Shown one piece after another: positions 10,041-50,399 of a stretch of 64,000 nucleotides of DNA (positions are counted from its first letter, which is position 1; each line of letters begins with the position of its first letter). The notes under the pieces were generated by a model, which was not told the origin of the DNA, made no database searches, and saw nothing but the letters and a program-made list of their open reading frames with translations. Source of the stretch: Candidatus Levyibacteriota bacterium (lineage in GTDB: Bacteria > Patescibacteriota > Microgenomatia > Levybacterales > GWA1-39-11); contig JBLMVJ010000035.1 in NCBI GenBank assembly GCA_050255815.1, positions 10,727 through 74,726 of the forward strand, given 5' to 3'. The position numbers and the translations under genes were made by a program.

Positions 10041-10048
10041 GAGAACTC

Positions 10049-20039: not shown

Positions 20040-21434
20040 TTAGGAAAGTTTGCTAACCAGAGGTAATAATCCCTTTGCAGTTTCCATGGTCACGGCTTTA
20101 AACCCAAACTTCTTTGCCTCCTTGATACGTTTTTCCAGGTTCATAACCTTCTTAATCTCTCCCAACAGGCCTACCTCTGCTATGGCAGCAGTTTTAGCAA
20201 GCGATTTTCCTTTCAGGGAGCTTATGATAGACAGGCACACTGCCAGGTCTGAAGCCGGCTCTGATATCTTAAAGCCACCTACTACATTTACGTACACATC
20301 ATACTTATCCAGCGGCAGCTTTCCATGTTTCTGCAGGATAGCCAGCAAGAGTTCCAGGCGTTTCTCTGAAACACCGTTTGCAACGCGGCGGGGAAAAGCC
20401 AGGCTGGAATGGATTACTAATGCTTGTATCTCTACTAAAATAGGTCTGCTCCCCTCCATGATAACTGCTACACAAGAACCGGGGGAAGCAACAGAGTCAC
20501 CCATGAACAATTCAGACAAGTCTGTAATTTGTTTAAGGCCATATTCTTCCATACCAAATATTCCCACCTCTGAGGTATCCCCAAACCTGTTTTTAAATGC
20601 CCGTAGAATACGCACTCCGGTCATTTTCTCTCCTTCCAGGTATAACACGGTATCAACCATATGGGACAACATCATAGGGCCTGCCACCATCCCTTCCTTA
20701 GTCACATGGCCTATGAGAAAAACCGGGGTGTGAGTAGTCTTTGCAAAAGCTACAAGCCTACCCGTAGCATGGCGCACCTGGGGAATAGAACCTGCATAAC
20801 CGGGGACGTCCCCACTCTCCATAGTCTGGATTGAGTCAATGATCAGCAGGTCAAAGTGTTCTTGCTGTGCCTGCTCCAGGGCTAAATCTATGTCTGAGGT
20901 AGCTAAGATAAATAAATTTTCCGAGTTAGTTTTCCTGTCTTTTTGCAGCCTTTGTGCCCGGAGAGTAACTTGCGCTTCAGATTCTTCACCGGTAACATAC
21001 AGTATCTTGCGGGTGGCGGGTAGCGAGTGGCTTGTAGTTTTCTCACCACCTGCTACGTGCCCTTTGCTATCTGCCAGGTTAAGCGCCGTCTGTAAAAGTA
21101 TTGTTGACTTACCAACCCCCGGATCTCCTGAAAGTAAGACTACGGAACCGGGGACAATCCCGGCTCTGGCCTCCTCCCCCAAAACTCTATCAAACTCTGA
21201 GAACCCCGTAGAAAACCGCTCTACCAAATTTACTTTCACATCACTTATCCTGGTCGGCTTTGCTGAGGAAACGAATTTGGAACTGTGACTCTTTGCCCCT
21301 CTGCCCCTCTGACTCTCAGAAGTCTTAAACTCTTTCATGGTATTCCATTCCCCACACTCCGGGCATTTTCCGTACCATTTTTGCGAGTCGTATCCGCAAC
21401 TACTGCAGACGAATGAAATATTAGTTTTAGACAT
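20040..21434 (-). CDS. radA: DNA repair protein RadA/Sms
   Basis: N-terminal zinc ribbon CSSCGYDSQKWYGKCPECGEWNT, Walker A GDPGVGKST, KNRFG motif, and a Lon-like C-terminus. Confidence 0.9.
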   Translation of the reverse strand: MSKTNISFVCSSCGYDSQKWYGKCPECGEWNTMKEFKTSESQRGRGAKSHSSKFVSSAKPTRISDVKVNLVERFSTGFSEFDRVLGEEARAGIVPGSVVLLSGDPGVGKSTILLQTALNLADSKGHVAGGEKTTSHSLPATRKILYVTGEESEAQVTLRAQRLQKDRKTNSENLFILATSDIDLALEQAQQEHFDLLIIDSIQTMESGDVPGYAGSIPQVRHATGRLVAFAKTTHTPVFLIGHVTKEGMVAGPMMLSHMVDTVLYLEGEKMTGVRILRAFKNRFGDTSEVGIFGMEEYGLKQITDLSELFMGDSVASPGSCVAVIMEGSRPILVEIQALVIHSSLAFPRRVANGVSEKRLELLLAILQKHGKLPLDKYDVYVNVVGGFKISEPASDLAVCLSIISSLKGKSLAKTAAIAEVGLLGEIKKVMNLEKRIKEAKKFGFKAVTMETAKGLLPLVSKLS

Positions 21435-21445
21435 ATTTCCGAGGG

Positions 21446-21510
21446 AATTTAGAGTCTAGAATTCAGATTTCAGAATTAAATTTTGAATTCTAAATTTTGA
21501 ATTCTAAATT
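21446..21510. repeat. AT-rich GAATTC/TAGAAT spacer repeat (S1-radA spacer)
   Basis: Shares aatttagagtYtagaatt and attctaaattc with 42790-42841. Also shares a 22-nt exact match (21458-21479) with the reverse complement of 34518-34539, inside a 23S intron. Confidence 0.6.
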
Positions 21511-22596
21511 CTACCGGTATCCTACGAAGGTCTTCGTAACAATAGGAGATAATACAACTACTCTCTTTTTGGTATCAACTTCTACCACTTCTGCACTTAC
21601 AGACTGTCCTGGTTCATAGGTGGTACCTGCAGGAATCTTGCTGGAAGAAATAAATCCATTTACACCGTCTCCCAGTTTAACAGTCACACCCTTTGACCTT
21701 ACATCTGAAACGGTCCCGGTTACTTTCTCTTCCGGCTTAAACTTCTCTGCTGCTTTAGCAAATGAGTCGTTGAGCAGAGATTTTACTGAAAGGTTTACCC
21801 TCCTGTTCTCTGCGTCTACGCTTAACACTACCGCCTCAAATGCATCACCTTTTTTATATAAATCATTTAAGTTCTCTACCCTCTCATGGGAAATCTCAGA
21901 AATATGGATAAAACCTTCGGTAAGTTTTCCTTCTGTTGCCTGCGTAGTCACATACACACCATATGATGCAACCTGGGAAACAGTTACCGGCACTTTTTTA
22001 TCTTTGGGGAAAAGTTTGCGCAAAATCTCTGCATCAGTTACATATGAAACAGCTTTCTGGGAAAAAATAGCCCTCTTTTTTGTTTTGTCAGACTCAATAA
22101 TTTTTACTTCTATAGTTTTGCCGCTTAGGTTCTCTCCGTCAAGCACCTGTGAGTTAGGAAGAAAACCGCGGATGCCATTTTCTGCTTCAACAAAAAATCC
22201 GCCGCGGGTAGGTTCTAAAACTTTCACGCTTACGGTCAGGTTATCTGCCAGTGCCTTGTCTAAATTAGAGAAAATGAGGTTGCCCAGCGTACGGCGCAGA
22301 GAAACAACAGGAAAACCCTCTTCTGCTTCAGGAGAAATAACAACAGCTTTTACTTTTTCTCCTACTTTCAGCATGGAAAGCAGGTGGTTGAGGTTATTTT
22401 TATCAACTTCCAGAACTAATGCATCTGATTTTGCACCAATATCTAAAAGGATTTCTTGGGGAGTGAGTTTTTTAACGGTTCCTTCTACTTCCTCACCTTT
22501 TTTAAACACCTTAAAACTTGAGGATGACCTGGCCATGAGCTCAGCCATGGAAGAAGCATGTCCTGGATTAGATGCGTTTTTGCTTGAAGTTGGCAC
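21511..22596 (-). CDS. rpsA: 30S ribosomal protein S1 (four S1 domains)
   Basis: Repeated S1-fold motifs (GEEVEGTV, GFLPNSQ, EGFIHISE, VTGTVSDV). The listed start is GTG 22596; ATG 22548 (MAELM) may be the true start. Confidence 0.75.
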   Translation of the reverse strand: MPTSSKNASNPGHASSMAELMARSSSSFKVFKKGEEVEGTVKKLTPQEILLDIGAKSDALVLEVDKNNLNHLLSMLKVGEKVKAVVISPEAEEGFPVVSLRRTLGNLIFSNLDKALADNLTVSVKVLEPTRGGFFVEAENGIRGFLPNSQVLDGENLSGKTIEVKIIESDKTKKRAIFSQKAVSYVTDAEILRKLFPKDKKVPVTVSQVASYGVYVTTQATEGKLTEGFIHISEISHERVENLNDLYKKGDAFEAVVLSVDAENRRVNLSVKSLLNDSFAKAAEKFKPEEKVTGTVSDVRSKGVTVKLGDGVNGFISSSKIPAGTTYEPGQSVSAEVVEVDTKKRVVVLSPIVTKTFVGYR

Positions 22597-22695: not shown

Positions 22696-22753
22696 CCTTC
22701 CAATTCCATCACTTGAAACAGAACCCATGAGAAACGAGTGAACGAGCGCCCGG
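22696..22753. repeat. copy C of the ~55-nt intergenic repeat family
   Basis: ccttccaattccatcacttgaaacagaacccatgagaaacgagtgaacgagcgcccgg aligns with copies A and B. Confidence 0.5.
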
Positions 22754-22881
22754 AAAGAACACACATGAGGGACTGTTGCGAAGCGGTTCTTTCAGTGAGT
22801 GAACGAGTTTTGAATGGATGAATGGTTCATCGTGATGGCAGTTTTTGCTCAACTTTTTGCTGCCAAAAAGTTGAAAGAAAC

Positions 22882-25529: not shown

Positions 25530-25573
25530 ATCCCTTGCTTTATACTTAATACATACTACATAATACTTAATAC

Positions 25574-26203
25574 ATGTCTTACCTGGTTTTAGTCCGTCAT
25601 GGATTATCTGAGTACAATAAAAAGGGCTTATGGACCGGATGGACTGATGTATCACTGGCGCCGGAAGGGATTGAACAGGCTAAAAAAACCGGCGAAGAAT
25701 TAAAAGACATCCGCATAGATTACGCTTACACCTCTGATTTAAAAAGGACCCAGGAAACGTTACACGAAATTCTACAGGTTATCGGCCAGTTTCCGGAAAT
25801 AACTTCAGATAAAGCCTTTAATGAGCGTAATTACGGAATCTACACTGGACGCAACAAATGGGATGTAAAAAAAGAGGTTGGGGAGGAAAAGTTTTTAGAT
25901 ATCAGAAGAGTTTATGATTACTCCATTCCTGAAGGGGAATCTTTAAAGCAGGTTTATGAACGCGAAGTGCCATATTATAAAGCGGAGATTGAACCAAAAC
26001 TCATGGCAGGTAAAAATGTTGTGATTGCATCCTCCGGAAATCCATTGCGGGCGTTGGTTAAATACCTGGAAAATATTTCAGACGAGGACATAGACAAGCT
26101 TGAAATAGGAACAGGCGAAGCATATGTTTACCAGATAGATTCCAATGGCAAAGTAATTAATAAGGAAATCAGAGGTAAAAATCCCATGGCAGGAAAGGTA
26201 TAG
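25574..26203 (+). CDS. gpmA: 2,3-bisphosphoglycerate-dependent phosphoglycerate mutase-like histidine phosphatase
   Basis: LVRHGLSEYNKKGLWTGWTDV (RHG motif). Adjacent to eno. Confidence 0.75.
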   Translation: MSYLVLVRHGLSEYNKKGLWTGWTDVSLAPEGIEQAKKTGEELKDIRIDYAYTSDLKRTQETLHEILQVIGQFPEITSDKAFNERNYGIYTGRNKWDVKKEVGEEKFLDIRRVYDYSIPEGESLKQVYEREVPYYKAEIEPKLMAGKNVVIASSGNPLRALVKYLENISDEDIDKLEIGTGEAYVYQIDSNGKVINKEIRGKNPMAGKV

Positions 26204-26984: not shown

Positions 26985-27983
26985 ATGCAGTATAATATTC
27001 CCATGTCTCCCATCATTTCAGTTGACCATCTAGTAAAAACATATAAAGTCCACAAGAAAGACCCGGGGTTTATGGGATCCGTAAAGTCTTTAGTAAACAG
27101 AAAATATGAACAGGTCCATGCGGTAAAAGATATTTCTTTTGAGATAAATCCCGGAGAGCTGGTAGGCTTTATAGGGCCTAATGGTGCAGGAAAAACTACC
27201 ACGCTGAAATGTCTGTCCGGTTTGCTTTTTCCCAGTGCCGGAAAGGTTGAAGTATTAGGATATGAACCTTTCCAAAGAAAAACCCCTTTTCTGAAGCAGA
27301 TTGCCCTGGTCATGGGACAGAAAAACCAGCTCTGGTGGGACCTTCCCCCTACAGAAACTTTTATCTTAAATAAGGAAATATATGAGGTGCCGGAGAAGCG
27401 GTTCAAAGAAACACTGAATGATTTAGTGGAACTCTTAGATGTAAAGGACGTGTTGAATATTCAGGTCCGGAAGTTATCTCTAGGGCAACGCATGAAATGT
27501 GAGCTAATTGCTGCCCTTCTCCACTCCCCTAAGGTTTTATTTTTAGACGAGCCAACCATAGGACTGGATGTAGTAATGCAGAAAAAACTCCGCGACTTTA
27601 TTAAACAATACAATGAAAAATACAACGCCACTATTATTTTGACCAGTCATTATATGGAGGATGTGCGGCAGCTATGTGAGCGAGTCATAGTCATAGACCA
27701 TGGAATGCTGCTGTTTGACGGAAGATTAGACGCGCTGGTGAAAGAATACACCCAGCACAAACTGATCTCTATAGTGTTTGAGAAAAAAGTGGAACGAAAG
27801 GATCTGGAAAAGTTAGGAACAGTACTGGAATATGACTTTCCAAAGGTTATCCTTTCCGTAAACCGCAAAGATTCCAACCAGGCTACTTCAAAACTCCTGA
27901 AAGACTTCCCCGTTGCGGATTTAAATATCCAGGAACCGGATATAGAAGACATCATTAGAGAGGTCTTTTCAAGAAAGAAATAA
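26985..27983 (+). CDS. ABC transporter ATP-binding protein (ABC-2 type system)
   Basis: Walker A GPNGAGKTT, signature LSLGQRM, Walker B LFLDEPT. Confidence 0.85.
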   Translation: MQYNIPMSPIISVDHLVKTYKVHKKDPGFMGSVKSLVNRKYEQVHAVKDISFEINPGELVGFIGPNGAGKTTTLKCLSGLLFPSAGKVEVLGYEPFQRKTPFLKQIALVMGQKNQLWWDLPPTETFILNKEIYEVPEKRFKETLNDLVELLDVKDVLNIQVRKLSLGQRMKCELIAALLHSPKVLFLDEPTIGLDVVMQKKLRDFIKQYNEKYNATIILTSHYMEDVRQLCERVIVIDHGMLLFDGRLDALVKEYTQHKLISIVFEKKVERKDLEKLGTVLEYDFPKVILSVNRKDSNQATSKLLKDFPVADLNIQEPDIEDIIREVFSRKK

Positions 27984-27986
27984 ACC

Positions 27987-28040
27987 AAGAAATTCAGTAG
28001 AAATAGATAGAAATTCATAGAAACTAAATTGTATTTATTG
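27987..28040. repeat. degenerate copy of the 74-nt GAAATT-rich element
   Basis: agaaattcagtagaaatagatagaaattcatagaaactaaattgtatttattg resembles the 5' two-thirds of 29685-29758. Confidence 0.4.
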
Positions 28041-28093
28041 CTGCACTTCAGTTTCTACCAATTTCAACTAATAGCTACCATTTTCTATGCCTT

Positions 28094-28894
28094 ATGTTGC
28101 GCAGTCTGAAATTATTTTTAGTAGAATGCCAGCTGGTGATTGAGGTAAAAAGCCTCTCCGTAGTGTGGTTTTTAGCCTCCATTTCAGGATCTATCCTTAT
28201 GATTATCTTCTGGACCGGTGTTACCAGCGCAAACGGCGGCTCCATTTCCGGCTGGAACACGGGAAGTTTTGCCACGTACTACCTCCTGGTTGCTCTGGCG
28301 GGGTCTCTCTTTATAGCCCATATAGAAGAAAATGTTTCCTTTCAAGATATCCAAAGAGGTGAGCTCTCTATGTATCTTTTGAAACCCTTCCCTTATTTTA
28401 GGTTTAAGCTGCTGATTGAGCTCCCCTGGCGCTTCATGCAAGGTGCTTTTGCCATTATAAGCATGATTTTAGTATTTCTGCTGGTTCCTCACCTGATCCA
28501 GATCACCCTTTCCCCGGTCCTGCTTCCTATGGCAATTTTATTAGTTTTCAGCGCCTTTTTATTGTCATTTACTTTCAAAATGTGCCTGGGGCTTCTGGCT
28601 TTCTGGTTTACAGAAATCAACTCACTCCTGCAGCTGACTGAAATTATTCTTACCCTCTGCGCAGGCTTCATAGTGCCATTGGTGTTCCTCCCAAATTATT
28701 TGCAAACCCTTTTTAATATCCTTCCGTTCTCTTACATGGTCTACTACCCTATCCTGGCACTTTTAGGAAAACTTAACCCAGACCAAGAAATACGAGTGTT
28801 TGGTATACAAATGTTGTGGACCTTTTTATTCTATCTACTCTATAAATTTCTCTGGAGGAAAGGAAGGCTGAAATTTACTGCCGTAGGACACTAA
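28094..28894 (+). CDS. ABC-2 type transporter permease (type 1 of a pair)
   Basis: Six TM segments. Resembles the 29793-30587 product; both end in an aromatic/basic tail (KFTAVGH versus KLYGAQGR). Confidence 0.7.
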   Translation: MLRSLKLFLVECQLVIEVKSLSVVWFLASISGSILMIIFWTGVTSANGGSISGWNTGSFATYYLLVALAGSLFIAHIEENVSFQDIQRGELSMYLLKPFPYFRFKLLIELPWRFMQGAFAIISMILVFLLVPHLIQITLSPVLLPMAILLVFSAFLLSFTFKMCLGLLAFWFTEINSLLQLTEIILTLCAGFIVPLVFLPNYLQTLFNILPFSYMVYYPILALLGKLNPDQEIRVFGIQMLWTFLFYLLYKFLWRKGRLKFTAVGH

Positions 28895-28895
28895 T

Positions 28896-29681
28896 ATGCA
28901 TTACCTAAAGATCTTAAAAGCGCTGATAGTCATTAACACCGCATACGCGTTAGAGTACAAGGCGCATTTTGTGGCCCAGGTTTTTGCAAGCCTGGCCTGG
29001 GGCGTATTTTCCGTGGTCAACATGATCCTTTTGACGTACCGCGTCCACTCTGCTTTTGGCTGGAGCAGGAATGAGCTCATCCTTCTTTCCGTTATGGTTA
29101 ATGTAGTCTATGGCATCCACCGTATGTTGTTTGATGTAAACTTCTGGAGATTCTCCCGGATTATCCATTATGGAGAAATGGACATGGTGCTGTTAAAGCC
29201 CGTGGACTCCCAGTTCCAAATGAGCATGTGGATCATAGATATTAGCGGTATCTTCAGATTTTTAGTTGCCCTAGCGCTCACCTTTATCCTGGTTTTTGCC
29301 ATGCACTTTCCTATTTCTCTGACAAGTGTGTTGATTGCCACTATTTTAAGCCTGGCCGGTGTGGTCCTTCTCTATGCTTTCACCTATATCTTCCTAACCC
29401 TCACCATCTGGTTCTCTAACCTCTCTAACCTGATGGGACTGGTGAATAATATCCTTTCTATGTCCCGGTATCCAAAAGAAATGTATGAAGGATTAGGCAC
29501 CTACTTTTTCTTTTTTCTCTTGCCTTTAATTGTTATAATAAGCACTCCTACAAAAGCTCTCATCCAAAAGGGGAACCTGTTAGATAGTCTGCTTTTAGTA
29601 CTCTTTACTATCCTATTTTTTGCAATCTCAAGGGTGTTCTGGAAATTCGCCCTGCGGTTCTATGTCAGTGCTTCAGGATAA
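28896..29681 (+). CDS. ABC-2 type transporter permease (type 2 of a pair)
   Basis: Six TM segments. Resembles the 30671-31453 product (C-termini YVSASG versus YTSASS). Confidence 0.7.
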   Translation: MHYLKILKALIVINTAYALEYKAHFVAQVFASLAWGVFSVVNMILLTYRVHSAFGWSRNELILLSVMVNVVYGIHRMLFDVNFWRFSRIIHYGEMDMVLLKPVDSQFQMSMWIIDISGIFRFLVALALTFILVFAMHFPISLTSVLIATILSLAGVVLLYAFTYIFLTLTIWFSNLSNLMGLVNNILSMSRYPKEMYEGLGTYFFFFLLPLIVIISTPTKALIQKGNLLDSLLLVLFTILFFAISRVFWKFALRFYVSASG

Positions 29682-29684
29682 ACA

Positions 29685-29758
29685 GGAAATTAATAGATAT
29701 TCATAGAAATTAAGAAATTGATTGTAATTACACAATTTAGTTTCCATGAATTTCGCGA
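29685..29758. repeat. 74-nt GAAATT-rich intergenic element, copy 1
   Basis: About 95% identical to 48527-48599, read directly. Confidence 0.85.
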
Positions 29759-29792
29759 CCGTAGGGAGCTTATTTCCAAAAATTTCTTTCTT

Positions 29793-30587
29793 ATGTATAA
29801 ATATTTCCGTATCTTCACCAATGTCTGGGGCAAAGCCCTTTCTTACCGGGTCAACTTTATCATGTGGCGTGTCCGTGTGGTGCTCCAACTTCTAACGTTA
29901 TTCTTTTTGTGGTCTACTATTCTCACCAACAGGACTGCTATCTTTGGCTACTCTACTTCCCAAATGCTCACGTACATTTTAGGCACTTCGCTCATTTCTT
30001 CTGTAGTTTTGTCCAGCCGCACTTTTGAAGTAGGAGACCAGATAAATGACGGTACGCTTTCTAATTTTCTGATCAAACCCATGTCCTACATAAAATACTG
30101 GTTCTTTTATGACCTGGGGGATAAAGCCAGCAACATATTTTTCTCTATAATCGAATTAACGATAATCATCTTTCTGTTCCGTCCGCCCCTTTATGTCCAA
30201 ACCAATCCCACCTATCTCATGTTTACCCTGGTTTCCGCGTTTTTAGCATTACTTTTATACTTTTACTTTGGCTTTTTACTGGGGCTTTTAGGATTCTGGA
30301 GCAATGAAGTGTGGGGACCACGCTTTATTTTCTTTATCATCATTAACTTTTTTGCCGGCGCTATGTTCCCGCTGGATGCGCTGCCAAAACAAGTGGTAAG
30401 CGTTCTCCAGCTTTTCCCATTCCCGTACCTTCTATACTTTCCGCTGAAGATTTATTTAGGAAAGATTTCTTTCCCGTTGATTATTCAAGGGCTCTTCATC
30501 TGTTCCGTGTGGATGGTAGGATTGTATTTTATTTGTAAATTTATCTGGTTAAAAGGATTGAAATTGTATGGGGCGCAAGGGAGATGA
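29793..30587 (+). CDS. ABC-2 type transporter permease (second type 1 copy)
   Basis: The listed ORF (29718) begins inside the repeat element. ATG 29793 (MYKYFRIF) is preferred. Confidence 0.65.
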   Translation: MYKYFRIFTNVWGKALSYRVNFIMWRVRVVLQLLTLFFLWSTILTNRTAIFGYSTSQMLTYILGTSLISSVVLSSRTFEVGDQINDGTLSNFLIKPMSYIKYWFFYDLGDKASNIFFSIIELTIIIFLFRPPLYVQTNPTYLMFTLVSAFLALLLYFYFGFLLGLLGFWSNEVWGPRFIFFIIINFFAGAMFPLDALPKQVVSVLQLFPFPYLLYFPLKIYLGKISFPLIIQGLFICSVWMVGLYFICKFIWLKGLKLYGAQGR

Positions 30588-30670
30588 GAATGTATCAAGT
30601 GTTAAGTAGCAAGTAGTATGTATTTTCTTGTGTCTCTTTGACTCTTTTGTAACCTTTGACTCTCATAATT

Positions 30671-31453
30671 ATGTCTAAATATTTTAAAATCTGGTTCACT
30701 TCTATGCTGCACCAGGCGCAGACTGCGTTTGCGTCCCGCCTGGGGGTGGTAGTGTTTTTAGTGGGAAAGCTCTTGCGCTTCTACTTTTTCCTCCTCTTCC
30801 TCTTTTTAATAGTCCATCAAACAAAAAGCATAGCGGGATATTCTCTATGGGAAGTAATTTTTTTCTATGCAACGTTTAATTTAATAGATTCTTTTCCCCA
30901 AATGGTCCTCCGATCTGTCTATGGATTTAGGAATTATGTAGTGTCAGGATTTTTTGATTTTTATATGGTCCAACCAGTCTCCCCCCTATTTAGGTCACTT
31001 TTTGGCGGTTCTGATATTCTTGATATCCCAATGCTATTTTTATCTATTGGATATATTATTTATTCTTCATTTATGCTACCCCATTTTTCAATCACCGGCG
31101 TCTTTTTATACATCTTACTGATCTTAAATGCCTTTATTATCTCTTTAGCATTCCATATTCTGGTCTTATCTATTGGGGTTATAAGCACGGAGGTGGATAA
31201 TACGGTAATGCTCTACCGGGACCTGACACAAATGGGAAGGCTGCCTATAGATATTTATAAACAAGCAGTAAGTTTTATCCTGACGTTTGTAATTCCCGTG
31301 GGAGTTATGATCACGTTTCCCGTAAAAGCGCTTCTGGGCGCACTTTCTCTCCAATTCATAGGATACTCTGTGGTATTTTCCGTGGTATTTCTTACGCTCT
31401 CACTCTTTCTCTGGACAAAGTCATTGAAAAATTACACCAGTGCCAGCAGCTAA
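30671..31453 (+). CDS. ABC-2 type transporter permease (second type 2 copy)
   Basis: The listed start is TTG 30656. ATG 30671 (MSKYFKIW) is preferred. Confidence 0.65.
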   Translation: MSKYFKIWFTSMLHQAQTAFASRLGVVVFLVGKLLRFYFFLLFLFLIVHQTKSIAGYSLWEVIFFYATFNLIDSFPQMVLRSVYGFRNYVVSGFFDFYMVQPVSPLFRSLFGGSDILDIPMLFLSIGYIIYSSFMLPHFSITGVFLYILLILNAFIISLAFHILVLSIGVISTEVDNTVMLYRDLTQMGRLPIDIYKQAVSFILTFVIPVGVMITFPVKALLGALSLQFIGYSVVFSVVFLTLSLFLWTKSLKNYTSASS

Positions 31454-33479: not shown

Positions 33480-33575
33480 GTCCTGGCCTTGACCTTAGGC
33501 GCGCAGTCCCAAAGGGGGACGAGCACCGCAAGTCAAGCAACTGGAATGGAAACAAAACAGTACAAATGTAGTAGA
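33480..33575 (-). pseudogene. degenerate 5S rRNA-like tandem copy
   Basis: The 36-nt segment 33461-33496 repeats 33579-33614 (the 5S 3' end plus trailer) with 4 mismatches. In between are a helix IV-like hairpin and a CCATTCC loop-C-like remnant. Confidence 0.3.
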
Positions 33576-33598: not shown

Positions 33599-33719
33599 GT
33601 CCTGGCCTTGACCTATCTTCCCATGTTGTGTAACAACAAAGTATTGTGAGCGCTGACGTGTTTCACTTCTCTGTTCGGAATGGGAAGAGGTGGGACCACA
33701 TCGCTCTAAAGACCAAGAC
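33599..33719 (-). rRNA. rrf: 5S rRNA
   Basis: The reverse complement reads TCTTGGTC...GGTCCCACCTCTTCCCATTCCGAACAGAGAAGTGAAAC...GGCCAGGA, with helix I pairing between the termini. Confidence 0.85.
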
Positions 33720-34000
33720 TCAAGAGCAAAACCGGTAAGATCCGAATCTACTCGAATAGTTTGGGGTAACTTCTAGGCTACCCCATTCTTCTCGAATATT
33801 TCGAATTAACATTAACAAACACTAGCGCATTCGAATTGATTCGATTTAAATTCGAACCATTCGAGAATGATTTCTTAGAATCCACGCTATTTGGATCGAC
33901 CTATTAGTACAACTTCGCTGAAACAGTTACCTGTCTTACACGTGTTGCCTATCAACCTGATGGTCTCTCAGGGGTCTAAAAGAGATCTTATCTTAGGGTG

Positions 34001-34033
<33 letters not shown>

Positions 34034-34268
34034 CATGGAAATCTAGCTACCCAGCAGTGCACTTGTAAGTACAACTGGCACACCAGGGATTTCCTCACCC
34101 CAGTCCTCTCGTACTAGGGGCGACTCCCTTCAAATCTCAAACGGTTGTCCTGGATAGAGTCCGAACTGTCTTACGACGTTCTTAACCCAGCTCGCGTACC
34201 TTTTTAACTGGCGAACAGCCAGACGCTTGGGAGCTTCTCCACCCCCGCGCTAAGATGAGCCGACATCG

Positions 34269-34698
34269 CTGTCAATCCAATCAGTAATTAAGAAAGACTT
34301 AAAAACTTAAAACTGATGGTGATACTCTTGTTACCAAGAGCCTCTGACTATACCTTCATCCGCCAACTGGCGGAGCTAGTCGTATGATACAGATTATAAA
34401 TTTCTCTTTATGAGATGAATCCATATCTCACCCTCTCACCTATGCTGGTGAGGGGTTCAGTCGATAGGGTCCAAAAGAAATTTAAAATTCAGAAGTTAAA
34501 ATTCAGAATTAAATTCTTAATTCTGAAATCTGAATTCTTAACTCTATTTGAACCTCGGTATTACCCTCTTGTGTTCAGAAAGTAGGGTTTCACCGATTTG
34601 GACTAGTTATTTAAATTATTAGTACCTTGTTTTTTGACTCAAATACTAATAAATACAGGCAAGAGTATTACTACTCAGGCGCCCCGATATTTTCATAT
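34269..34698 (-). mobile_element. group I-type intron (430 nt, no ORF) after the E. coli U2500 equivalent
   Basis: Exon junction is GGCACCU | CGAUGUCGGCUC. The 5' exon ends in U and the intron ends in G. GATGAAGGTATAGTC (reverse complement of 34346-34360) resembles the group I J8/7-P7 core. Confidence 0.7.
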
Positions 34699-34742
34699 AA
34701 GGTGCCAAACCGCATCGTCGCTGTGGACGCTTGGATGCGATC

Positions 34743-34775
<33 letters not shown>

Positions 34776-35230
34776 AAGCTACGTCCCAACCACTAAGGAA
34801 CGCAGGATCACTAACACCTGCTTTCGCACCTGCTCGACTTGTAGGTCTCGCAGTCAAGCTGGCTTGTGCGTTTGCACAATACGCTCCGATTTCCGTCCGG
34901 AGTTAGCCAACCTTTGTACGCCTCCGTTGCACTTTAGGAGGCAACCTCCCCAGTTAAACTGCCCACCAGACACTGTCTTTTAGCCGTATTTTTATGCGGC
35001 ATTAAAGTAATGCTCACTCATCTTAAAGAGAGGTATTTCATTGATGACCGAAGTCTCCCTCCTATACTAAACAGTTAAAATAAGCTTGCAAATGTCAAGC
35101 TACAGTAAAGCTCCCGGGGTCTTTTTGTCCTAGGACAACCAGGCCGCGTCTTCACAGCCATCTCAATTTCGCCGTGTAAATGTTCAAGACAGTTACTCAG
35201 TCGTTCTACCTTTCGTGCGGGTCGGAACTC

Positions 35231-35548
35231 CATTGTTTTAATGTTCCAACATGGAACCTCACAGTCGCCTGTGAGATCGGACTATATCTTTCCCTTACCA
35301 AATTGGTGAGGGATCTAGCGTCTAGTCTCTGAGGGTTTTCCGATAAATCGGAATCTTCCCTGCTGATTGGCTCCACCAAGCAGATTTTTACTCTTACGAG
35401 TACTGTTGGATACTGAGCTGTTCCAGCAAATAGCTAGATTTTACACTCATTTAGGTTAACGATTGTGTTCTTACGTGACTGTTTTGCTTGTTCCTGATGT
35501 GTATCCCGATTAGATCGGGACTCGGGCAAGTTGATTTGACCCAAACCA
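35231..35548 (-). mobile_element. group I-type intron (~318 nt, no ORF) after the E. coli U1951 equivalent
   Basis: Exon junction is UCCUUGUCGGGU | (G)AGUUCCGACC. The 5' exon ends in U and the intron ends in G. AAGATATAGTCC (reverse complement of 35279-35290) and GAGACTAGACG core-like motifs are present. Confidence 0.65.
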
Positions 35549-36885
35549 ACCCGACAAGGAACTTCGCTACCATAGAACAGTTATAGTTACTGCTGCCGTT
35601 CACCGGAGCTTTAGAAAGCGGCTCCACCTTGCGGTTTCACCACCCACTATTGACTTACCGGCACTGGGCAGGTGTCAGCCCCTATACGTTACCTTTCGGT
35701 TTTGCAGGGACCTGTGTTTTAGATAAACAGTCGCTAAGTAATCTTTTGCTTAACCTGGATGTTACTCCAGGCAGGGCATCTCCCATAGGTTACGCCCAGC
35801 TTTTGTTGCCGAGTTCCTTGAACATTTGTCTCACGGTCGCCTTAGTCTACTCGACCAATCCACCTGTGTCGGTTATGCGGTACGGCAAAATATAGCACTC
35901 CTCACGAATCTTTTCCTGAAGACTGAAACTTACGATCCTCACCCTACTTTCTTGCGATTTCAGATTTGCATTCGCCACTTAATTAAACACTTTGACGGAT
36001 TTGCCCATCAAAACTATCTTATGGCTTGGACCCTGTTTACAGGGCGATCCTTTCCACTCTTGTCCATCCTTGAGTAATAACGCACTATACTCTGTAGCAG
36101 AATATTAACTGCTTGTCCATCCGGCTACCCCGCGCTTTATGACGGGCCACCGTTAGGAGCCGACTAACGCTGCGCTGACTTACATTGCGCAGCAAACCTT
36201 GGATTTTCGGCGGACGCCGTTCTCAGGCGTCATTCGCTACTCATGCCGGCATTCTCACTTGTAAACGCTCCACCATACCTTACAGTACAGCTTCGCTGCA
36301 TTTACGACGCTCCCCTACCACTTGCTCCGATAAATCGGAGTCAAATCTCCATCGTCGGTATTAAGCTTAATCCTCGATCATTTCCGGCGCCATTCTCCAA
36401 TGTCGACTAGTGAGCTGTTACGCTTTCTTTAAAGGATGGCTGCTTCTGAGCCAACCTCCTAGCTGTCTATGGAAAATGACTTCCTTATCAACTTAGCTTA
36501 AATTTAGAGACCTTAGATGGGAGTCTGGGCTGTTTCCCTTTAGACCCACGAGCTTAGCCCCGCAAGTCTGACTCTCTATTAAGTTTTTACGGTATTCGGA
36601 GTTTGATTGATCCTGAAAAGTTGCCTCTCCAGAGACCATTCAGTGCTCTACCCCCGTAAAAACATACAAAAGGCTATACCAAAATATATTTCGGGGAGAA
36701 CCAGCTATCTCCAGGTTCGTTTAGTATGTCACCCCTTACCACAAGTCGTCTCAGATCATTGCTGCGATCACGAGTTCGGGCCTTCCTCATCCTTTCGAAC
36801 AAGTTCACCCTGCTCATGGTAAGCTCACCTGGTTTCGGGTCTTTTGCAATGCGCATTTAGGTATCCCAGTTAGAGATCGCTTTCA

Positions 36886-36992
36886 CTATGCCTCCCCCCT
36901 CACCTTTCCAACGAAAATTCCAACCTTTGTTTTAAATCGAGCTTGTTTCGATAATATTTCAAAGTGGTAATCCTCATTAGAATGGTGAGGGG
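36886..36992 (-). other. 107-nt stem-closed expansion/insertion in the 23S domain II helix-25 region
   Basis: Closed by cccctcacc (36886-36894) pairing with ggtgagggg (36984-36992). Absent from the E. coli and B. subtilis sequence as I recall it. Confidence 0.5.
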
Positions 36993-37360
36993 TTAGACTG
37001 CGCAATACAAAAACTCACCGGCTCATTCTTCAATAGGCACGACGTTATACCCTTGCGGGCACTTCGTCTGCTTGTTAGCTAATAGTTTCAGTAACTCTTT
37101 CATTCCCCTCCCGGGGTGCTTTTCACCTTTCCCTCGCGGTACTAGTTCACTATCGGTAGATGTTGATATTTAGCTTTGGAGCGTGGTCGCCCCGGCTTCC
37201 CACAGGGTTTAATCGTACCCCATGGTACTCAGGAACAGGCAAGAAGTGAAAATCATTTCAAATACGGGACTATCACCCTCTTTGGTCTCTTTTTCCAAAA
37301 CGTTCTTCTATGATTTCCATTTGTGACTTCTTTTGCATTTAAGCAAGCCGTCCTACAACC

Positions 37361-37660
37361 CCCCTCACCTTTTTATCACTAACCTTTTTAAAAGTTCTTG
37401 CCAAGCTTTTGCGCGCTTCTTAAGCGCCTGCTCTCTTCTAAAAGCTAATTTATAAGAAGTATATGCTTCATAATAAATAAGCTCCCATGGCAAAAACTTT
37501 TTAGTATATATAGACTTTCCTTTATTATGGTCCGTAAATCGAGTTTTAAGATCTTTTGTTGAACCAATATAAAACTGGTCGAACTTTACACTCTTAAGAA
37601 TATACGTGTAGAACATAAGTCTATTATAGTTATTTAAGTTAGGAACAAAAAGGTGAGGGG
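37361..37660 (-). mobile_element. 300-nt stem-closed intervening sequence in 23S domain I carrying a GIY-YIG ORF
   Basis: Perfect 10-bp closing stem: cccctcacct (37361-37370) with aggtgagggg (37651-37660). It replaces the short hairpin that follows ...CAGCYCAAACC in other bacteria. Confidence 0.6.
37365..37616 (-). CDS. small GIY-YIG (URI-domain, COG2827/YhbQ-like) nuclease encoded inside the 23S insertion
   Basis: MFYTYILKS...FYIGSTKDLKTRFTDHN...E...ALKREQALKK pattern. Same orientation as the rRNA. The stop codon lies within the closing stem. Confidence 0.8.
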   Translation of the reverse strand: MFYTYILKSVKFDQFYIGSTKDLKTRFTDHNKGKSIYTKKFLPWELIYYEAYTSYKLAFRREQALKKRAKAWQELLKRLVIKR

Positions 37661-38003
37661 TTTGAGCTGTTCCGCGTTCGCTCGCCGCTACTGACGGAAT
37701 CTCTGTGATTTCTTTTCCTCGGACTACTTAGATGTTTCAGTTGGTCCGGTATCCCGCCGACTACTAATATATTAATCTTGCGACTAATAACTTCATAGCA
37801 GGCTCCCAGTTAAACTGGGGGGTTTCCCCATTCGGACACCACCGGATCATAATGTCTTCGGCCATTCCCCGGTGATTTTCGCGAGCCAGATGCGTCCTTC
37901 TTCGGTCAACACCTCCTAGGCATCCACTATTAGCATGAATCAAATAGCGTAGATTCTAAAAAACCAATTCATTAAAAACCATGCCTCGGCTTGAAACATG
38001 GAA

Positions 38004-38028: not shown

Positions 38029-38222
38029 AATCCTCCGTCCCGATTAGATCGGGACTTCGGCCTAGTTGTTTGTTTGTAATTCTTCCAATTATTAATGAGC
38101 AAAACGCTTTTTGCGTTGCCCTCGGATGTAATCCGAGGCCATATCTCTCCTGTACTCGTTTCTCGCCGGGAAGTATATTGCCCTTCCACCAGCGAGGAAC
38201 CAATACAAGAAAACTAAAAAAG

Positions 38223-38295
38223 TGGACCCAAGGAGATTTGAACTCCTGACCTCGTCATTGCAAATGACGCGCTCTACCAGCTAAGCTATGGGCCC
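38223..38295 (-). tRNA. tRNA-Ala (anticodon UGC)
   Basis: The reverse complement GGGCCCATAGCTTAGCTGGTAGAGCGCGTCATTTGCAATGACGAGGTCAGGAGTTCAAATCTCCTTGGGTCCA folds as a cloverleaf with G3:U70. CCA is not encoded. Confidence 0.95.
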
Positions 38296-41853: not shown

Positions 41854-42789
41854 TTATGCTTTTTGCATGGTGAGCCAGCGCTCTATATCTAGTGCTGCCA
41901 TGCAGCCAAATCCTGCGGCAGTTACTGCCTGGCGGTACCTATCATCCTGGACATCCCCGGAAACAAAAACACCTTCTATATTAGTCCTCACCCGTTCTTT
42001 TGCGCTTACATACCCGCTTTGCGTCAAATCTACCCCTTTAAAGATAGATGAATTTGGCGTATGGCCAATAGCCACAAATATACCGTCTATAGGCATTTCT
42101 GTTACTTCCTGGGAGACGGTATTCTGGATTTTAACCTTCTCTACTTTGTTCCCCCCCAGTACTTCAACAATTTGAGAGTTAAGCATAACTTTAATTTTTG
42201 GGTTATTTTTTACTTTATCCTGCATAATCTGGGATGCCCTAAAGCTGTCCCTTCTATGGAGCAAGGTAACTTCTGCAAAATTGGTGAGGAAGTTTGCTTC
42301 CTCCATAGCAGAATCCCCTCCGCCTACAACTATGATCTTTTTTCCCCTAAAAAATGCCCCGTCACAGGTTGCACAGTATGAAATACCGCGCCCGGTCAGC
42401 TCTTTTTCACCCGGTACGCCCAGTGTTTTTGAATTCTCACCGGTAGCCAGGAGAAGGGCTTTGCCTTTATAGGTCTTCCCGTCCGCTGTTATAGAAAACG
42501 GAGAGGATGCCCCTGTCAAATCTGTAGGATCAGCATCCGCATTCACGAACGTTACTCCAAAACGCTCTGCCTGGCTTCTCATTTCCATCATAAGCTGGGG
42601 TCCCTGTATTCCTTTGGGAAAGCCCGGGAAGTTTTCAACCTCCGTAGTAAGCATGAGCTGGCCACCCCAAGTCTTCCCTGCAATGATAAGAGTTTTAAGT
42701 CCGGCTCTGGAGGTATAAATTCCTGCAGTGAGGCCGGAAGGACCGGATCCTATGATGATTACATCAAAAATGGGTAATTCAGAATTCAT
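41854..42789 (-). CDS. trxB: thioredoxin-disulfide reductase
   Basis: FAD motif IIIGSGPSG, redox-active CATCDG, and NADPH motif VVGGGDSAMEEA. Confidence 0.88.
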   Translation of the reverse strand: MNSELPIFDVIIIGSGPSGLTAGIYTSRAGLKTLIIAGKTWGGQLMLTTEVENFPGFPKGIQGPQLMMEMRSQAERFGVTFVNADADPTDLTGASSPFSITADGKTYKGKALLLATGENSKTLGVPGEKELTGRGISYCATCDGAFFRGKKIIVVGGGDSAMEEANFLTNFAEVTLLHRRDSFRASQIMQDKVKNNPKIKVMLNSQIVEVLGGNKVEKVKIQNTVSQEVTEMPIDGIFVAIGHTPNSSIFKGVDLTQSGYVSAKERVRTNIEGVFVSGDVQDDRYRQAVTAAGFGCMAALDIERWLTMQKA

Positions 42790-42841
42790 AATTCAGAGTT
42801 AATAATTAAATTTAGAGTTTAGAATTTTATATTCTAAATTC
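42790..42841. repeat. AT-rich GAATTC/TAGAAT spacer repeat (trxA-trxB spacer)
   Basis: Shares aatttagagtYtagaatt and attctaaattc with 21446-21510. Confidence 0.55.
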
Positions 42842-43168
42842 TTACGAGGAGAGGGCTTCGTCCAGTGCTTTCTTAAATACGTCTTTTGGCTGGACTCCCA
42901 CGGTAGTTGCTACCGGCTTTCCCTTCTGGAAAATAATAACCGTGGGGATAGACATGATCCCAAAACTGGAAGGGGTTTTTACGTTCTCATCTACGTTCAT
43001 CTTCCCTACCTTTACCTTCCCCTCATACTCTTTCTCCAATTCTTCAATAATAGGAGTGAGCATATGGCAGGGAGTGCACCACTCTGCCCAAAAATCCACC
43101 ACAAAAGGAACGTCTGACTTTAAAACGTCTTGCTCAAATGTATCATCAGAAAGTTTTACAACTGACAT
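42842..43168 (-). CDS. trxA: thioredoxin
   Basis: 108 aa with active site WCTPC, a variant of WCGPC. Confidence 0.9.
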   Translation of the reverse strand: MSVVKLSDDTFEQDVLKSDVPFVVDFWAEWCTPCHMLTPIIEELEKEYEGKVKVGKMNVDENVKTPSSFGIMSIPTVIIFQKGKPVATTVGVQPKDVFKKALDEALSS

Positions 43169-44736: not shown

Positions 44737-44777
44737 GTGCTATTCTCTTCAACTCTGCGAAATCATATAAACAACTT

Positions 44778-44834
44778 CCTTAATTTCATCACTTGGAATA
44801 TAAAACCATGGAGGAATGAATGAGTGAGCGCCCG
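44778..44834. repeat. copy B of the ~55-nt intergenic repeat family
   Basis: ccttaatttcatcacttggaatataaaaccatggaggaatgaatgagtgagcgcccg. Confidence 0.6.
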
Positions 44835-47924: not shown

Positions 47925-48485
47925 CTACCACGTCTGGCACGCAGCGTCTCCCATACAGACTTTCCATGATATGCTGTTTCTAGGCCCATACTGGTCAAAC
48001 ATGCTATCCTTTGGATTATTAAGGTACTGGGTTACCTCTACTCCGCAGGCAATAAGCGCATATTGGATTCCGTCAGACCGGTAAAGAAAAGCTTTCTTTG
48101 TCCCGTTCCCGGCAGGAGTAGGACAAGAAGTATCCCCACCGGTAGGGTCTGCCGGCAGCGCTTGTATGTACTTAGGGGCCAGGTTGGGTATCCATCCCCC
48201 TGCTCCACCATTATTACTAAACGTATCCCCTCCGTCAGAGGAATAATAAGCGTCACCTGTTGAAGGATAATTTCCGTTATCGTTGTAATATTGTTCCAGC
48301 GCTCCCTGCAGCTGCTTCAGGATGGTACGCCTCTGGGAATCCCGTGCTTTTGCAAATTGGGTAAGGGGGTTTAGAACAGAGAGGAGGACTACAGCAAGAA
48401 CTCCTAAAATTCCTATAACGGTAATCAGCTCAATGAGAGTGAATCCGGCACGAGTTTCTATAAGCTTTGGGGCAGAAAACCTCAT
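47925..48485 (-). CDS. type IV pilin/pseudopilin
   Basis: Prepilin N-terminal motif AGFTLIELITVIGILGVLAVV. Confidence 0.75.
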   Translation of the reverse strand: MRFSAPKLIETRAGFTLIELITVIGILGVLAVVLLSVLNPLTQFAKARDSQRRTILKQLQGALEQYYNDNGNYPSTGDAYYSSDGGDTFSNNGGAGGWIPNLAPKYIQALPADPTGGDTSCPTPAGNGTKKAFLYRSDGIQYALIACGVEVTQYLNNPKDSMFDQYGPRNSISWKVCMGDAACQTW

Positions 48486-48526
48486 ATCTTAAGTTAACCA
48501 CAGGAAAATTGACTAGTCAATGAAAA

Positions 48527-48599
48527 GGAAATTAATAGATATTAATAGAAATTAAGAAATTGATTGTAATTGCACAATTAATTTCCATGAATTTCGCGA
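48527..48599. repeat. 74-nt GAAATT-rich intergenic element, copy 2
   Basis: Matches 29685-29758 apart from three substitutions and one indel. Confidence 0.85.
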
Positions 48600-48626
48600 A
48601 GCAAGTTTCTATCAGTTTCTAAGGTG

Positions 48627-50399
48627 TTATTTCTTTTGCGCTTTGAAGATTTCTTCTACTTCTTGCAGGGTGGTTGCGTCTTCCGGCTTTTTGTCATCCC
48701 TAAATTTTTCTAACCTGGGAAACCGCAAAGCATAGCCCGGCACATCTACGTCAAATGCTGACCCTGATTTGGAAGGCTTCATACTGCGTCCTGCGGTATG
48801 CACGGGGGATCGGGTCAACTCATCAGCCTTAATTTCTACCACTATTTCCGGGTTTACCCACACATCCGGCTCCAGCCATTTATCTACTTCAAACAGTACT
48901 GGCTTGTGGCTTGCCTTAATCCTCTCTGCCCTCCTGTGCAGCTCTTTCCATTCTTCATCAGTCAGTCCGGTTCCCACCTTTGCTATAGTTTCAAATTTAT
49001 CCTGTTTCTCATTGTAAATCCCTATCAAAAACGCTCCTATCCCAAAAGACGTCCGCTTTCCCCGTCCTGAATAATACCCCATGACTACACAGTCCACCGT
49101 GTCTTCCAGTTTTGACTGGTATGACCGTTTCAGCTTTATCCAATTCCAGCCCCTGGCGCCCGCCTGATACGTACCGTCTAGTTTTTTAGCCAGGATTCCC
49201 TCCAACCCCCGGGAAATGGCATCATCAAAAAAGTTTTCTATTTCTTTTGCATCCCCCAGAACCTGCTCTTCTGCCTGATAGATAGTCTTTCCTTCTTTAA
49301 TGATTCTAGAAACTGCCTTCCTGCGGTCTTTATATGCTTCAGGGATATAATTTTTTCCATTCAGGTACAGCAGGTCAAAAACCATCAGCTTCAGGGGAAT
49401 CTTTTTTGCCATTTCTTCTATGTCATACTTCCGCTTTCTTTGGGCGGTCAGCTGGAACGGAAGATATTCATTTGTTTCCGGATTGTAGGCAATTGCTTCC
49501 CCCTCCAGAATCACTTCATCCGCATCTATTTGGGAGACCAGCCCTTCCTCTACATCCGGGTACATAAAGGTAACCTCTTCAAGATTTCGCGTGAATAGCT
49601 TTACTCTAAACCCTTTCCCCTTTTCCCTCTTCAGGTGCGCCTGTAGCCTAAATCCGTCAAATTTTGGCTCTATAGCGCATTCCCCTATCTTATCTACAAT
49701 TTCCTGCCCTGAAGAAAGACGCTCTGCGCGGGCCATAAGGATGGGGGTAAAAACTGATGGCTTTATATGTGATAAGCCCTTCAAGCCATCCTCTTTTATA
49801 GTTTTTCCTATTATTCCCAAATCAGGCCGGATGTTATATGCCCGCTCAATTTCCGGTCTGGCTTTCTTATCTTTCCCCAGCATCCAGGATAAAGAATCCA
49901 GAACGGTCATATCAGAAAAGCCCAGGCGGAGCTTTGCCACCGGAATCCTGGAAACAAATCTGCGGGATAACGGATCTAAATCCTGCAAAAGCTCTGCCAT
50001 AAGACCTATTTTTTTCTCTACAGAACCCGCTCCTCCACTTTCTGCAACCTGCCTCAACACTTCAAACACCTGGGAAACCGTACCATCTCTTCCCATTTTT
50101 GTTCCCCCCAGGCTTTGGGCTATCTCACCCAAATCCCCAACTTTTTTATATTCTGCTGCAGCTTTTTCATCTGAAACAGCAAAAGCCTGGGCTATAGCTC
50201 TTACCATCATCTTGTCAGCCATCCCAAACTCTAACGGTTCAAAAAGCGGCGCTACCCTTCCCTGCAAAAGATACATTACTTTATCAAAAACGTCCGCCGG
50301 CACTTTTTCAAAAAGTTCTGAGAGAATGAGAATCATGTCATTGCGGGAAGCAGTGTTTTCCAGTTTTTCTAAATGGATTGATAGCTCTGAGAATTTCAT
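48627..50399 (-). CDS. lig: ATP-dependent DNA ligase (Lig1/archaeal-type, DBD + adenylation + OB)
   Basis: Motif I EPKFDGFR, EGEAI, EGILAK, WIKLK and an OB domain. 590 aa. Confidence 0.88.
   Translation of the reverse strand: MKFSELSIHLEKLENTASRNDMILILSELFEKVPADVFDKVMYLLQGRVAPLFEPLEFGMADKMMVRAIAQAFAVSDEKAAAEYKKVGDLGEIAQSLGGTKMGRDGTVSQVFEVLRQVAESGGAGSVEKKIGLMAELLQDLDPLSRRFVSRIPVAKLRLGFSDMTVLDSLSWMLGKDKKARPEIERAYNIRPDLGIIGKTIKEDGLKGLSHIKPSVFTPILMARAERLSSGQEIVDKIGECAIEPKFDGFRLQAHLKREKGKGFRVKLFTRNLEEVTFMYPDVEEGLVSQIDADEVILEGEAIAYNPETNEYLPFQLTAQRKRKYDIEEMAKKIPLKLMVFDLLYLNGKNYIPEAYKDRRKAVSRIIKEGKTIYQAEEQVLGDAKEIENFFDDAISRGLEGILAKKLDGTYQAGARGWNWIKLKRSYQSKLEDTVDCVVMGYYSGRGKRTSFGIGAFLIGIYNEKQDKFETIAKVGTGLTDEEWKELHRRAERIKASHKPVLFEVDKWLEPDVWVNPEIVVEIKADELTRSPVHTAGRSMKPSKSGSAFDVDVPGYALRFPRLEKFRDDKKPEDATTLQEVEEIFKAQKK

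Follow-up and report, generated by a model that had tools for sequence, protein, structure and literature searches.

Dispersed AT-rich hairpin repeats, probably of a REP/REPIN/MITE-like kind, in intergenic spacers of a Levyibacteriota genome

Why should a bacterial genome carry the same 74 nucleotides, rich in GAAATT words, at two unrelated places? The question was raised by an initial annotation of the window, i.e. the whole 64-kb stretch of DNA analyzed here, which reported two near-identical copies of the sequence (A and B) and a degenerate third one (C). The window belongs to a CPR/Patescibacteria genome, and its DNA ligase has a 100% match labeled Candidatus Levyibacteriota. Genomes of the CPR/Patescibacteria are small and densely packed with genes and, by most accounts, have few repeats and few regulators. 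To our knowledge, small intergenic palindromic repeats of this kind have not been described in the CPR lineage before, and our literature search brought up no report of REP- or MITE-like repeats from CPR bacteria.

Copies A and B are identical at 70 of 73 aligned bases and differ by one indel, as had been reported (about 95% identity, three substitutions and one indel). They have an exact 24-mer in common, with 0 expected in a shuffled window, and an nhmmer profile built from the two finds both core copies in the window with E-values of 2e-22 and 7e-21. The near-identity ends at about 29678/48520 on the left and at 29758/48599 on the right, and the flanks beyond are not near-identical. Copy C, 64-67% identical to A and B, was detected by the A+B-only profile at 28000-28065 (E about 1e-3, on either strand), while a fuller family profile gave the span 27997-28090. 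Thus, the degenerate third copy does exist, but its original delimitation (27987-28040) was wrong. All three copies also fit a degenerate two-arm pattern, for which 0 matches are expected in the window. These three are the family members visible in the 64 kb:

27997..28090, plus strand: copy C, a diverged member (profile, pattern, fold)
29685..29758, plus strand: near-identical core of copy A (24-mer, alignment, nhmmer)
29759..29790, plus strand: tail of copy A (family profile, fold, alignment)
48527..48599, plus strand: near-identical core of copy B (24-mer, alignment, nhmmer, fold)
48600..48623, plus strand: tail of copy B (family profile, fold, alignment)

The architecture common to all three copies starts with three to four 10-nt units, (T)AGAAATTNA, arranged head to tail, which are followed by a short loop and then by two to four inverted units; A and B additionally have a small GC-containing side bulge in the distal arm. 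The full hairpin element is about 105 nt long (95-110 nt across the family), longer than the 74 nt first noted. This extended hairpin had been missed, as had the facts that the near-identity covers only part of the element and that analogous repeats are present in many other gaps. The GAAATT direct repeats are as described: four forward words (one of them GATATT) are spaced by 10, 10 and 8 nt in A and B, and are accompanied by two inverted AATTTC words. The corresponding spacing is 11, 10 and 10 nt in C, and 10, 10 and 10 nt in two elements from metagenomes, L090 and L091 (see below). The central attgt...acaat inverted repeat is likewise seen, as GAAATTGATTGT/ACAATT(A/TAG)TTTC.

Individual copies vary around this scheme. 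In copy A, four 10-nt-phased forward units (GGAAATTAATA / GATATTCATA / GAAATTAA / GAAATTGATT) are accompanied by an inner hairpin in which 29714-29725 pairs with 29732-44, by two inverted units and by the terminal TTTCGCGA; a bulge is present at the inner-stem position where B pairs over 12 bp. The tail of A contains a bulge or side stem, CCGTAGGGAGC, and then degenerate inverted units, TTATTTCC and AAATTTCT, up to the permease-3 ATG at 29793. The inner stem of copy B, GAAATTGATTGT/ACAATTAATTTC, joins 48556-48567 with 48574-48585 (12 pairs including one G-T) around the loop AATTGC, and its tail consists of a GCGA-AGC spacer and two more inverted units (AAGTTTCTATCAGTTTCT). Hence, after TTTCGCGA both A and B run on through a small bulge and two inverted units. 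Copy C has the four forward units GAAATTCAGTA / GAAATAGATA / GAAATTCATA / GAAACT, followed after the loop by inverted units AGTTTCTACCAATTTC ... CATTTTCT, and stops at the ATG of permease 1 (28094). The identity between A and B is 96% in the 74-nt core and 67% in the tails; the tail of B is closer to that of the L090 element in a groES 5'UTR (79%) than to that of A. The difference between core and tails implies either that a recent copy covered part of two older elements or that the core alone is the copied unit.

The core and tail of B together fold into one long hairpin (-22.3 kcal/mol, z -3.3), and the gap holding copy A folds at -21.0 kcal/mol (z -2.4). Compared with shuffled sequences, z-values range from -2 to -3.3 for A, B and C and from -3.7 to -6.4 for the metagenome copies. 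Copies B and C give the more stable fold on the non-transcribed strand, whereas elements L092 and L096 fold better on the transcribed strand (-39.7 versus -26.1 and -46.0 versus -34.6 kcal/mol, respectively). As a test of an RNA-level role, the strand asymmetry of folding is therefore inconsistent across elements. Covariation in the family alignment gave no support for a selected structure, the base pairs being almost invariant and the test thus uninformative. The ends show imperfect inverted symmetry (about 17 of 22 terminal bases by hand comparison, plus reverse-strand profile self-hits). We looked for sharply defined termini at the copies and found none. Neither did we find a target-site duplication, either in the flanks (ACA|...|CCG for A, AAA|...|AGC for B) or by comparing filled with empty sites.

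Pfam assignments uphold the gene context given initially, namely that copies precede the duplicated ABC-2 permease pairs and lie between the pilin and ligase genes. Copy C is located between an ABC ATPase and ABC-2 permease 1, copy A between permeases 2 and 3, whereas copy B separates two minus-strand genes, one for an ATP-dependent DNA ligase and one of prepilin type:

26985..31453, plus strand: host operon, ABC ATPase then ABC-2 permeases 1-4 (Pfam)
26985-27983, plus strand: ABC ATPase (Pfam)
28094-28894, 28896-29681, 29793-30587 and 30671-31453, plus strand: ABC-2 permeases 1-4 (Pfam)
47925..48485, minus strand: prepilin-type gene (N-methylation motif, T2SS-G-like), downstream of copy B (Pfam)
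48486..48521, minus strand: pilin-proximal block, 27/36 positions conserved by our own count (alignment to the closest relative)
48627..50399, minus strand: ATP-dependent DNA ligase (Pfam)

The ligase stop at 48627 is 27 nt from the A/B-homologous core of copy B, which ends at 48599. On its other side, copy B is immediately upstream of the pilin-proximal block, which holds a TTGAC box and the palindrome TTGACTAGTCAA, a possible -35 region.

Segmental duplication as an explanation of the copies was rejected. Permeases 1 and 3 are only 32% identical at the amino-acid level and permeases 2 and 4 only 24%, and the operon of an ATPase and four permeases is also present in a Levyibacteriota relative. 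The permease duplication is thus ancient; over such a time, no spacer free of selection would still show 65% identity, still less 96%. As the flanks are unrelated too, neither A/C nor A/B is a relic of gene duplication.

A different view of the same junctions is offered by related genomes. The closest relative available for comparison, represented by Logan runs SRR22387748 and SRR22387770 (amino-acid identity of 91% for permease 3, 84% for the ligase and 65% for the pilin), is without the element at both orthologous sites, A and B. Its ligase-pilin gap is 64 nt compared with 141 nt in the window, and the missing stretch of about 77 nt is the one that holds element B. The gap between permeases 2 and 3 of the 91% relative contains 153 nt of unrelated sequence; in two 70% relatives the spacer is absent (TAA-T-ATG), and in a 71% relative the gap is occupied by a 109-nt palindrome of CAAAA/AAAAGT words. 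The junction between permeases 3 and 4 is 83 nt in the window and 5 nt in the 91% relative (L083). Overall, across 80 related ABC operons just 15 of 122 intercistronic junctions measure at least 40 nt (about 88% are below 40 nt), whereas three of the four junctions in the host operon are expanded to 83-111 nt. Tight coupling of cistrons thus appears to be the default, and the three expanded junctions of the window to be lineage-specific gains. Recent mobility or gene conversion, proposed from the A/B identity, is supported as far as a recent copy event is concerned, since there is no segmental duplication, the permease paralogs are old, the flanks are unrelated and the orthologous sites of the closest relative are empty.

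We then asked whether the family extends beyond the window. Scans for the exact 24-mer in 185,579 species-representative genomes and in JGI metagenomes gave no hit. The two-arm pattern, in turn, was found in three contigs of JGI metagenomes, where our own estimate from base composition puts the chance expectation well below one, and a word scan of retrieved CPR loci added a fourth outside element, L092:

L089 element: upstream of rpsP, following the final gene of a cluster of five tRNAs
L090 element: flanked by a CIRCE-like operator and the start codon of groES
L091 element: intergenic
L092 element: between a substrate-binding protein gene and secG

The units of these four elements, their 10-nt phasing and their order are as in A, B and C. 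As in A and B, two distal inverted units come after a G+C-rich side hairpin in elements L090 and L092, and the TTTCGCGA junction of A and B recurs in L090. The best named matches of the GroEL encoded next to L090 are from Minisyncoccales/Nealsonbacteria, i.e. Parcubacteria, a different CPR class from that of the window. Searches of 1.4-1.6 Mb of CPR loci with nhmmer profiles of A/B, of A/B/C and of seven members revealed no members beyond those found with the pattern. The two-arm pattern is absent from viral collections, and BLAST of copy B against plasmid and phage collections gave no match. One-arm tandem TAGAAATTAA runs without an inverted arm do occur in very AT-rich giant-virus and phage contigs, where they resemble simple microsatellites. 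These runs indicate that the direct-repeat arm alone can arise by slippage, so part of the cross-lineage resemblance could reflect convergent slippage rather than homology. Nevertheless, the order of modules makes common descent of the window, L090 and L092 elements probable, if not certain.

The GroEL proteins of L090 and L092 are 96% identical, and the promoter and the CIRCE-like site are conserved between them; yet about 115 nt of the groES leader are non-homologous, the GAAATT element being present in L090 and a palindrome of CCAAG/TTGG words in L092. In further relatives, the same slot holds CAAACAA/TTGTTG or CAATTTTC/GAAAATTG palindromes, and in a Nealsonbacteria genome the leader element is duplicated about 0.7 kb away, between oppositely transcribed genes. 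In overview, slots and architecture stay conserved, and the sequence family that fills a slot is interchangeable.

The CIRCE-like inverted repeat itself, TTAGCAGTC-N9-GATTGCTAA, is located downstream of a TTGACA-type promoter before groES and is conserved in the Parcubacteria clade (L090 at about 5430-5480 on the minus strand, L092 at about 5070-5100, and L093-L098 upstream of groES). The repeat points to HrcA-type heat-shock control in these CPR bacteria.

Within the window, the GAAATT family is not the only structured intergenic sequence. Intergenic gaps have a mean fold z-value of -1.4 compared with -0.2 for coding controls (p = 0.001). The structured gaps are mostly those containing a gene 3' end, and three of five divergent gaps are without excess structure. 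Many gaps have short stutter words of their own together with inverted copies, and several of these form dispersed families. Given the repeats and structure in so many gaps, the GAAATT element is one example of a wider tendency in this genome.

Several of the other repeats may be described briefly. A second palindromic family, with AGAATTC/AGATTTC words, is present at 21429-21526, 34476-34545 and 42773-42842 (76-77% identity, z down to -5.9); two of its copies are in tight co-directional gaps (radA/S1 protein and thioredoxin reductase/thioredoxin), and the third is within the 23S rRNA gene span, presumably inside an insertion. A 29-nt ATACTTAATAC/AAGTAG stutter at 25548-25576, in the enolase-phosphatase gap, has an inverted copy with 83% complementarity at 30596-30624; this copy forms part of an insertion of about 78 nt, relative to L083, the 91% relative, in the gap between permeases 3 and 4. 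A motif of the form TAGG(A/C)GCGCAG-[variable hairpin]-(A/T)CGAGCACC(G/T)CAA, enclosed by a variable, co-varying outer stem, occurs in the window at 33497-33527 and 44885-44918, and also in ABC-operon gaps of another CPR MAG (L011, 10996-11039 and 11886-11941). It has no match to an Rfam family and may be a separate structured dispersed element or a small RNA. Finally, a repeat of about 60 nt (...CCTTAATTTCATC.CTTG.AATAT.AAACCATGGAG.AA.GAATGAGTGA...) is located in gaps downstream of genes at 5565-5624, 44767-44827 and about 22700-22760, the first two copies being 83-91% identical.

Some additional features of the window deserve mention. A gene for the Rho termination factor (7009-8271, minus strand) bears on transcript ends in a genome where canonical intrinsic terminators appear scarce. 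The 23S rRNA gene (33883-37949, minus strand) is 4067 nt long compared with the 2925-nt model, with about 1.1 kb of insertions, among them a group I intron at 35258-35526 on the minus strand (Rfam, 80.5 bits). It is flanked by 5S rRNA (33600-33717) and tRNA-Ala (38222-38295), and upstream of it there is no 16S rRNA but a 487-aa ORF without a Pfam match. Two paralogs of about 715 aa with C-terminal TPR repeats are encoded in tandem on the plus strand (1235-3373 and 3376-5523), as the result of a gene duplication; in several segments, which form repeat families D1, D3 and D4, their DNA identity is 71-73%. A local G+C spike at 10001-12000 (0.60 compared with about 0.43) covers a 488-aa ORF without a Pfam match, which has a 39-nt tandem repeat, GGCAACAACGGCAACGGTAGCGGCAACGCGAACCAGCC(T/C), at 11283-11360 and is possibly a low-complexity surface protein or foreign DNA.

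What, then, is the GAAATT element? A number of established identities do not apply. No Rfam 15 RNA family matches it at the gathering threshold, the sole sub-threshold match being a chance miRNA hairpin (21 bits versus 88). A scan for intrinsic terminators finds nothing in A, B or C, whose stems are rich in A-U pairs; read in the sense direction, neither A nor C is followed by a U tract. For sigma-70-like promoters, the scan yields none in A or B and one weak minus-strand promoter-like match overlapping C. Iteron, origin or partition repeats would be expected as 17-22-bp direct repeats next to rep, par or an origin, whereas the present 10-nt units are at three separate chromosomal sites.

Our preferred reading, which we consider probable, is that A, B and C are non-coding, AT-rich, quasi-palindromic dispersed intergenic repeats of a REP/REPIN/MITE-like kind. 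The elements fill short spacers between co-directional genes, and each can fold, as single-stranded DNA or within the operon transcript, into one long imperfect A-U hairpin; we infer that this hairpin, of RNA or DNA, is the relevant form. The family would have been gained at the A and B sites after the split from the nearest sampled relative, and the 74-nt cores would have become 96% identical by recent copying, either through gene conversion between pre-existing members or through insertion or trans-mobilization of a mobile core of 74-80 nt. On this account the elements are presumably largely selfish or structural and tolerated only in intergenic slots. Their effects on flanking messages would probably be generic at most, such as uncoupling cistrons or buffering 3' ends, with no dedicated operator involved. 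Copies A, C and L090 are in the sense orientation and end right at the downstream start codon, so that the region of translation initiation would come to contain a long hairpin; copy B is bordered by the ligase stop and the conserved pilin-proximal block, a position at which one would expect a 3'-end hairpin. As to the agent of mobility, no transposase, integrase or RAYT domain was found in a selected set of 58 window ORFs of at least 70 aa plus two ORFs inside the 23S span, and no partner insertion sequence was found in the window or in plasmid and phage collections.

Among known systems, REP/BIME elements and REPINs are close in kind. REPs typically number tens to hundreds per genome, with a cognate RAYT typically flanked by the repeats. 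The intergenic slots that they occupy can be common to related species while the repeat sequence is species-specific, which matches the conservation of the groES-leader slot with swapping of its sequence. In outline, REPINs are inverted REP doublets mobilized by RAYT tyrosine transposases in Proteobacteria (PMC3337134, PMC3116915). Similarly to REP, BIME and REPIN sequences, the elements studied here are short and non-coding and are confined to extragenic sites, with A, B, C and the four metagenome elements all intergenic. Two inverted arms around a spacer form one hairpin of about 100 nt (fold and consensus stem), and copies are dispersed in one genome, between co-directional operon genes and without target-site duplication. 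The arms, however, are tandem 10-nt A+T-rich units, whereas a REP is a single G+C-rich imperfect palindrome of 20-40 nt; no RAYT or Y1 transposase was seen among the ORFs examined in these 64 kb of the genome; and the host is a CPR bacterium.

Bacterial MITEs, also close in kind, are exemplified by Correia elements of Neisseria, RUP and BOX of Streptococcus and Nezha of cyanobacteria. With these the present family has in common a length of 70-110 nt, imperfect terminal inverted symmetry, intergenic location, near-identical recent copies and the capacity to be co-transcribed and to form hairpins. It differs in the absence of a target-site duplication and in that its inverted symmetry stems from words repeated internally and not from discrete terminal inverted repeats; moreover, we know of no autonomous insertion sequence related to it. 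Rickettsia palindromic elements (about 100-150 nt, often in-frame in genes, not tandem 10-mers) are comparable in being dispersed hairpin repeats of a small-genome, host-dependent bacterium with patchy presence among relatives, but they are longer, are often inside genes and do not consist of tandem 10-mers. TIGR arrays, which are frequent in CPR, have 36-nt units with two variable spacers of 8-12 nt, box C/D-like motifs and an adjacent gene for the Nop-domain protein Tas (PMC12045711). They too are tandemly periodic, partly palindromic and poorly conserved non-coding arrays of CPR genomes. Here, in contrast, the units are 10 nt long, and the neighbors are ABC transporter, ligase and pilin genes. 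With no spacers, no box C/D motifs and no adjacent Tas gene, the element is not a TIGR array as defined in PMC12045711.

Three other explanations have to be weighed against a dispersed repeat. The elements might be selected as cis-acting RNA structures, acting between cistrons to stabilize the message or direct its processing, as a partial terminator or attenuator, or, in a 5'UTR, as a hairpin for translational control or thermosensing. What would be maintained is then the slot and the fold, not the sequence, a view compatible with the dispersed-repeat reading. The sense orientation of A, C and L090 directly at start codons is in line with this, and so is the predominance of gene 3' ends among the structured gaps of the window, divergent gaps being mostly without excess. 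All examined relatives in the Parcubacteria clade have a long, sequence-distinct word-palindrome between the CIRCE-like site and the groES ATG, and L092 and L096 are much more stable on the transcribed strand. Yet the orientation of B and L092 is opposite (antisense) to that of A, C and L090; the more stable fold of B and of C is on the non-transcribed strand; covariation is absent; and at the same junctions most relatives manage with overlapping or abutting cistrons. Lacking a G+C-rich stem and a U tract, the elements are also not canonical intrinsic terminators. Given the inconsistent orientation and strand stability and the absence of covariation, we regard a selected RNA function as unlikely and a sequence-specific protein-binding array as very unlikely. 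In such an array (iteron, operator or centromere), 10-bp phased TAGAAATT units would load a multimer co-regulating the ABC permeases and the pilin; the initial annotation had likened the repeats to iterons or a multimeric protein-binding site. Although the unit spacing of about 10 nt equals roughly one helical turn and the same word is kept across elements of different CPR lineages, the genes flanking the seven elements (ABC transporter, pilin/ligase, groES, tRNA cluster/rpsP, secG) have no function in common, and the elements are not uniformly oriented with respect to transcription. In close relatives, the orthologous sites are without the element or without any spacer, and equivalent palindromes, both inside a single genome and in the matching slots of relatives, use unrelated words (GAATTC, AAGTAG, CCAAG, CAATTTTC, CCGAAT), each of which would need a protein of its own. 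Besides, no replication or partition gene is adjacent, and the L090 element is downstream of both the promoter and the CIRCE-like operator. As the primary identity of the element, such an array is therefore not supported.

The remaining explanation dispenses with transposition altogether: slippage and template switching would generate the elements locally and de novo in AT-rich spacers, and the A/B identity would be a single ectopic gene-conversion tract. It accounts for the abrupt end of the near-identity inside elements with differing tails and for the way in which words tend to differ from spacer to spacer. One GGAAACTT-type word is already present at the empty B site of the relative, and tandem TAGAAATTAA runs have arisen independently in AT-rich viral genomes. 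Local origin does not readily explain why distinct families are dispersed at unrelated loci (D2 with three copies, the pair 25548-25576/30596-30624 and the L096 family with two copies), and the unit order, side hairpin and distal units common to the window, L090 and L092 would be hard to reach by convergence. On balance, we consider a purely local origin improbable and retain the dispersed REP/REPIN/MITE-like repeat as the best explanation.

A more far-reaching possibility, which we put forward as speculative and rather doubtful, is that CPR bacteria have a hitherto undescribed class of interchangeable 'tandem-word hairpin cassettes' of about 100 nt, modular RNA structures that occupy fixed intercistronic or 5'UTR slots and are exchanged between slots and lineages. 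Words repeated in 10-nt phase may make up their arms, often together with a small side hairpin rich in G+C, and the slots may include the groES leader downstream of the CIRCE-like operator. The cassettes may spread by hairpin-targeted copying without target-site duplication and may set the relative expression of neighboring cistrons in regulator-poor genomes; the GAAATT family of the window may be one cassette type common to Microgenomates and Parcubacteria.

If the elements are only products of slippage and gene conversion, they amount to a modest note on the texture of CPR genomes. If a dedicated enzyme mobilizes them, the enzyme itself would be of interest. A recently copied family of hairpin repeats would serve strain typing and the assessment of metagenome assembly quality. 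It would also inform how CPR genomes change, with operon junctions expanded and fixed slots swapped in and out, and would give a handle on how polycistronic messages might be tuned in these bacteria.
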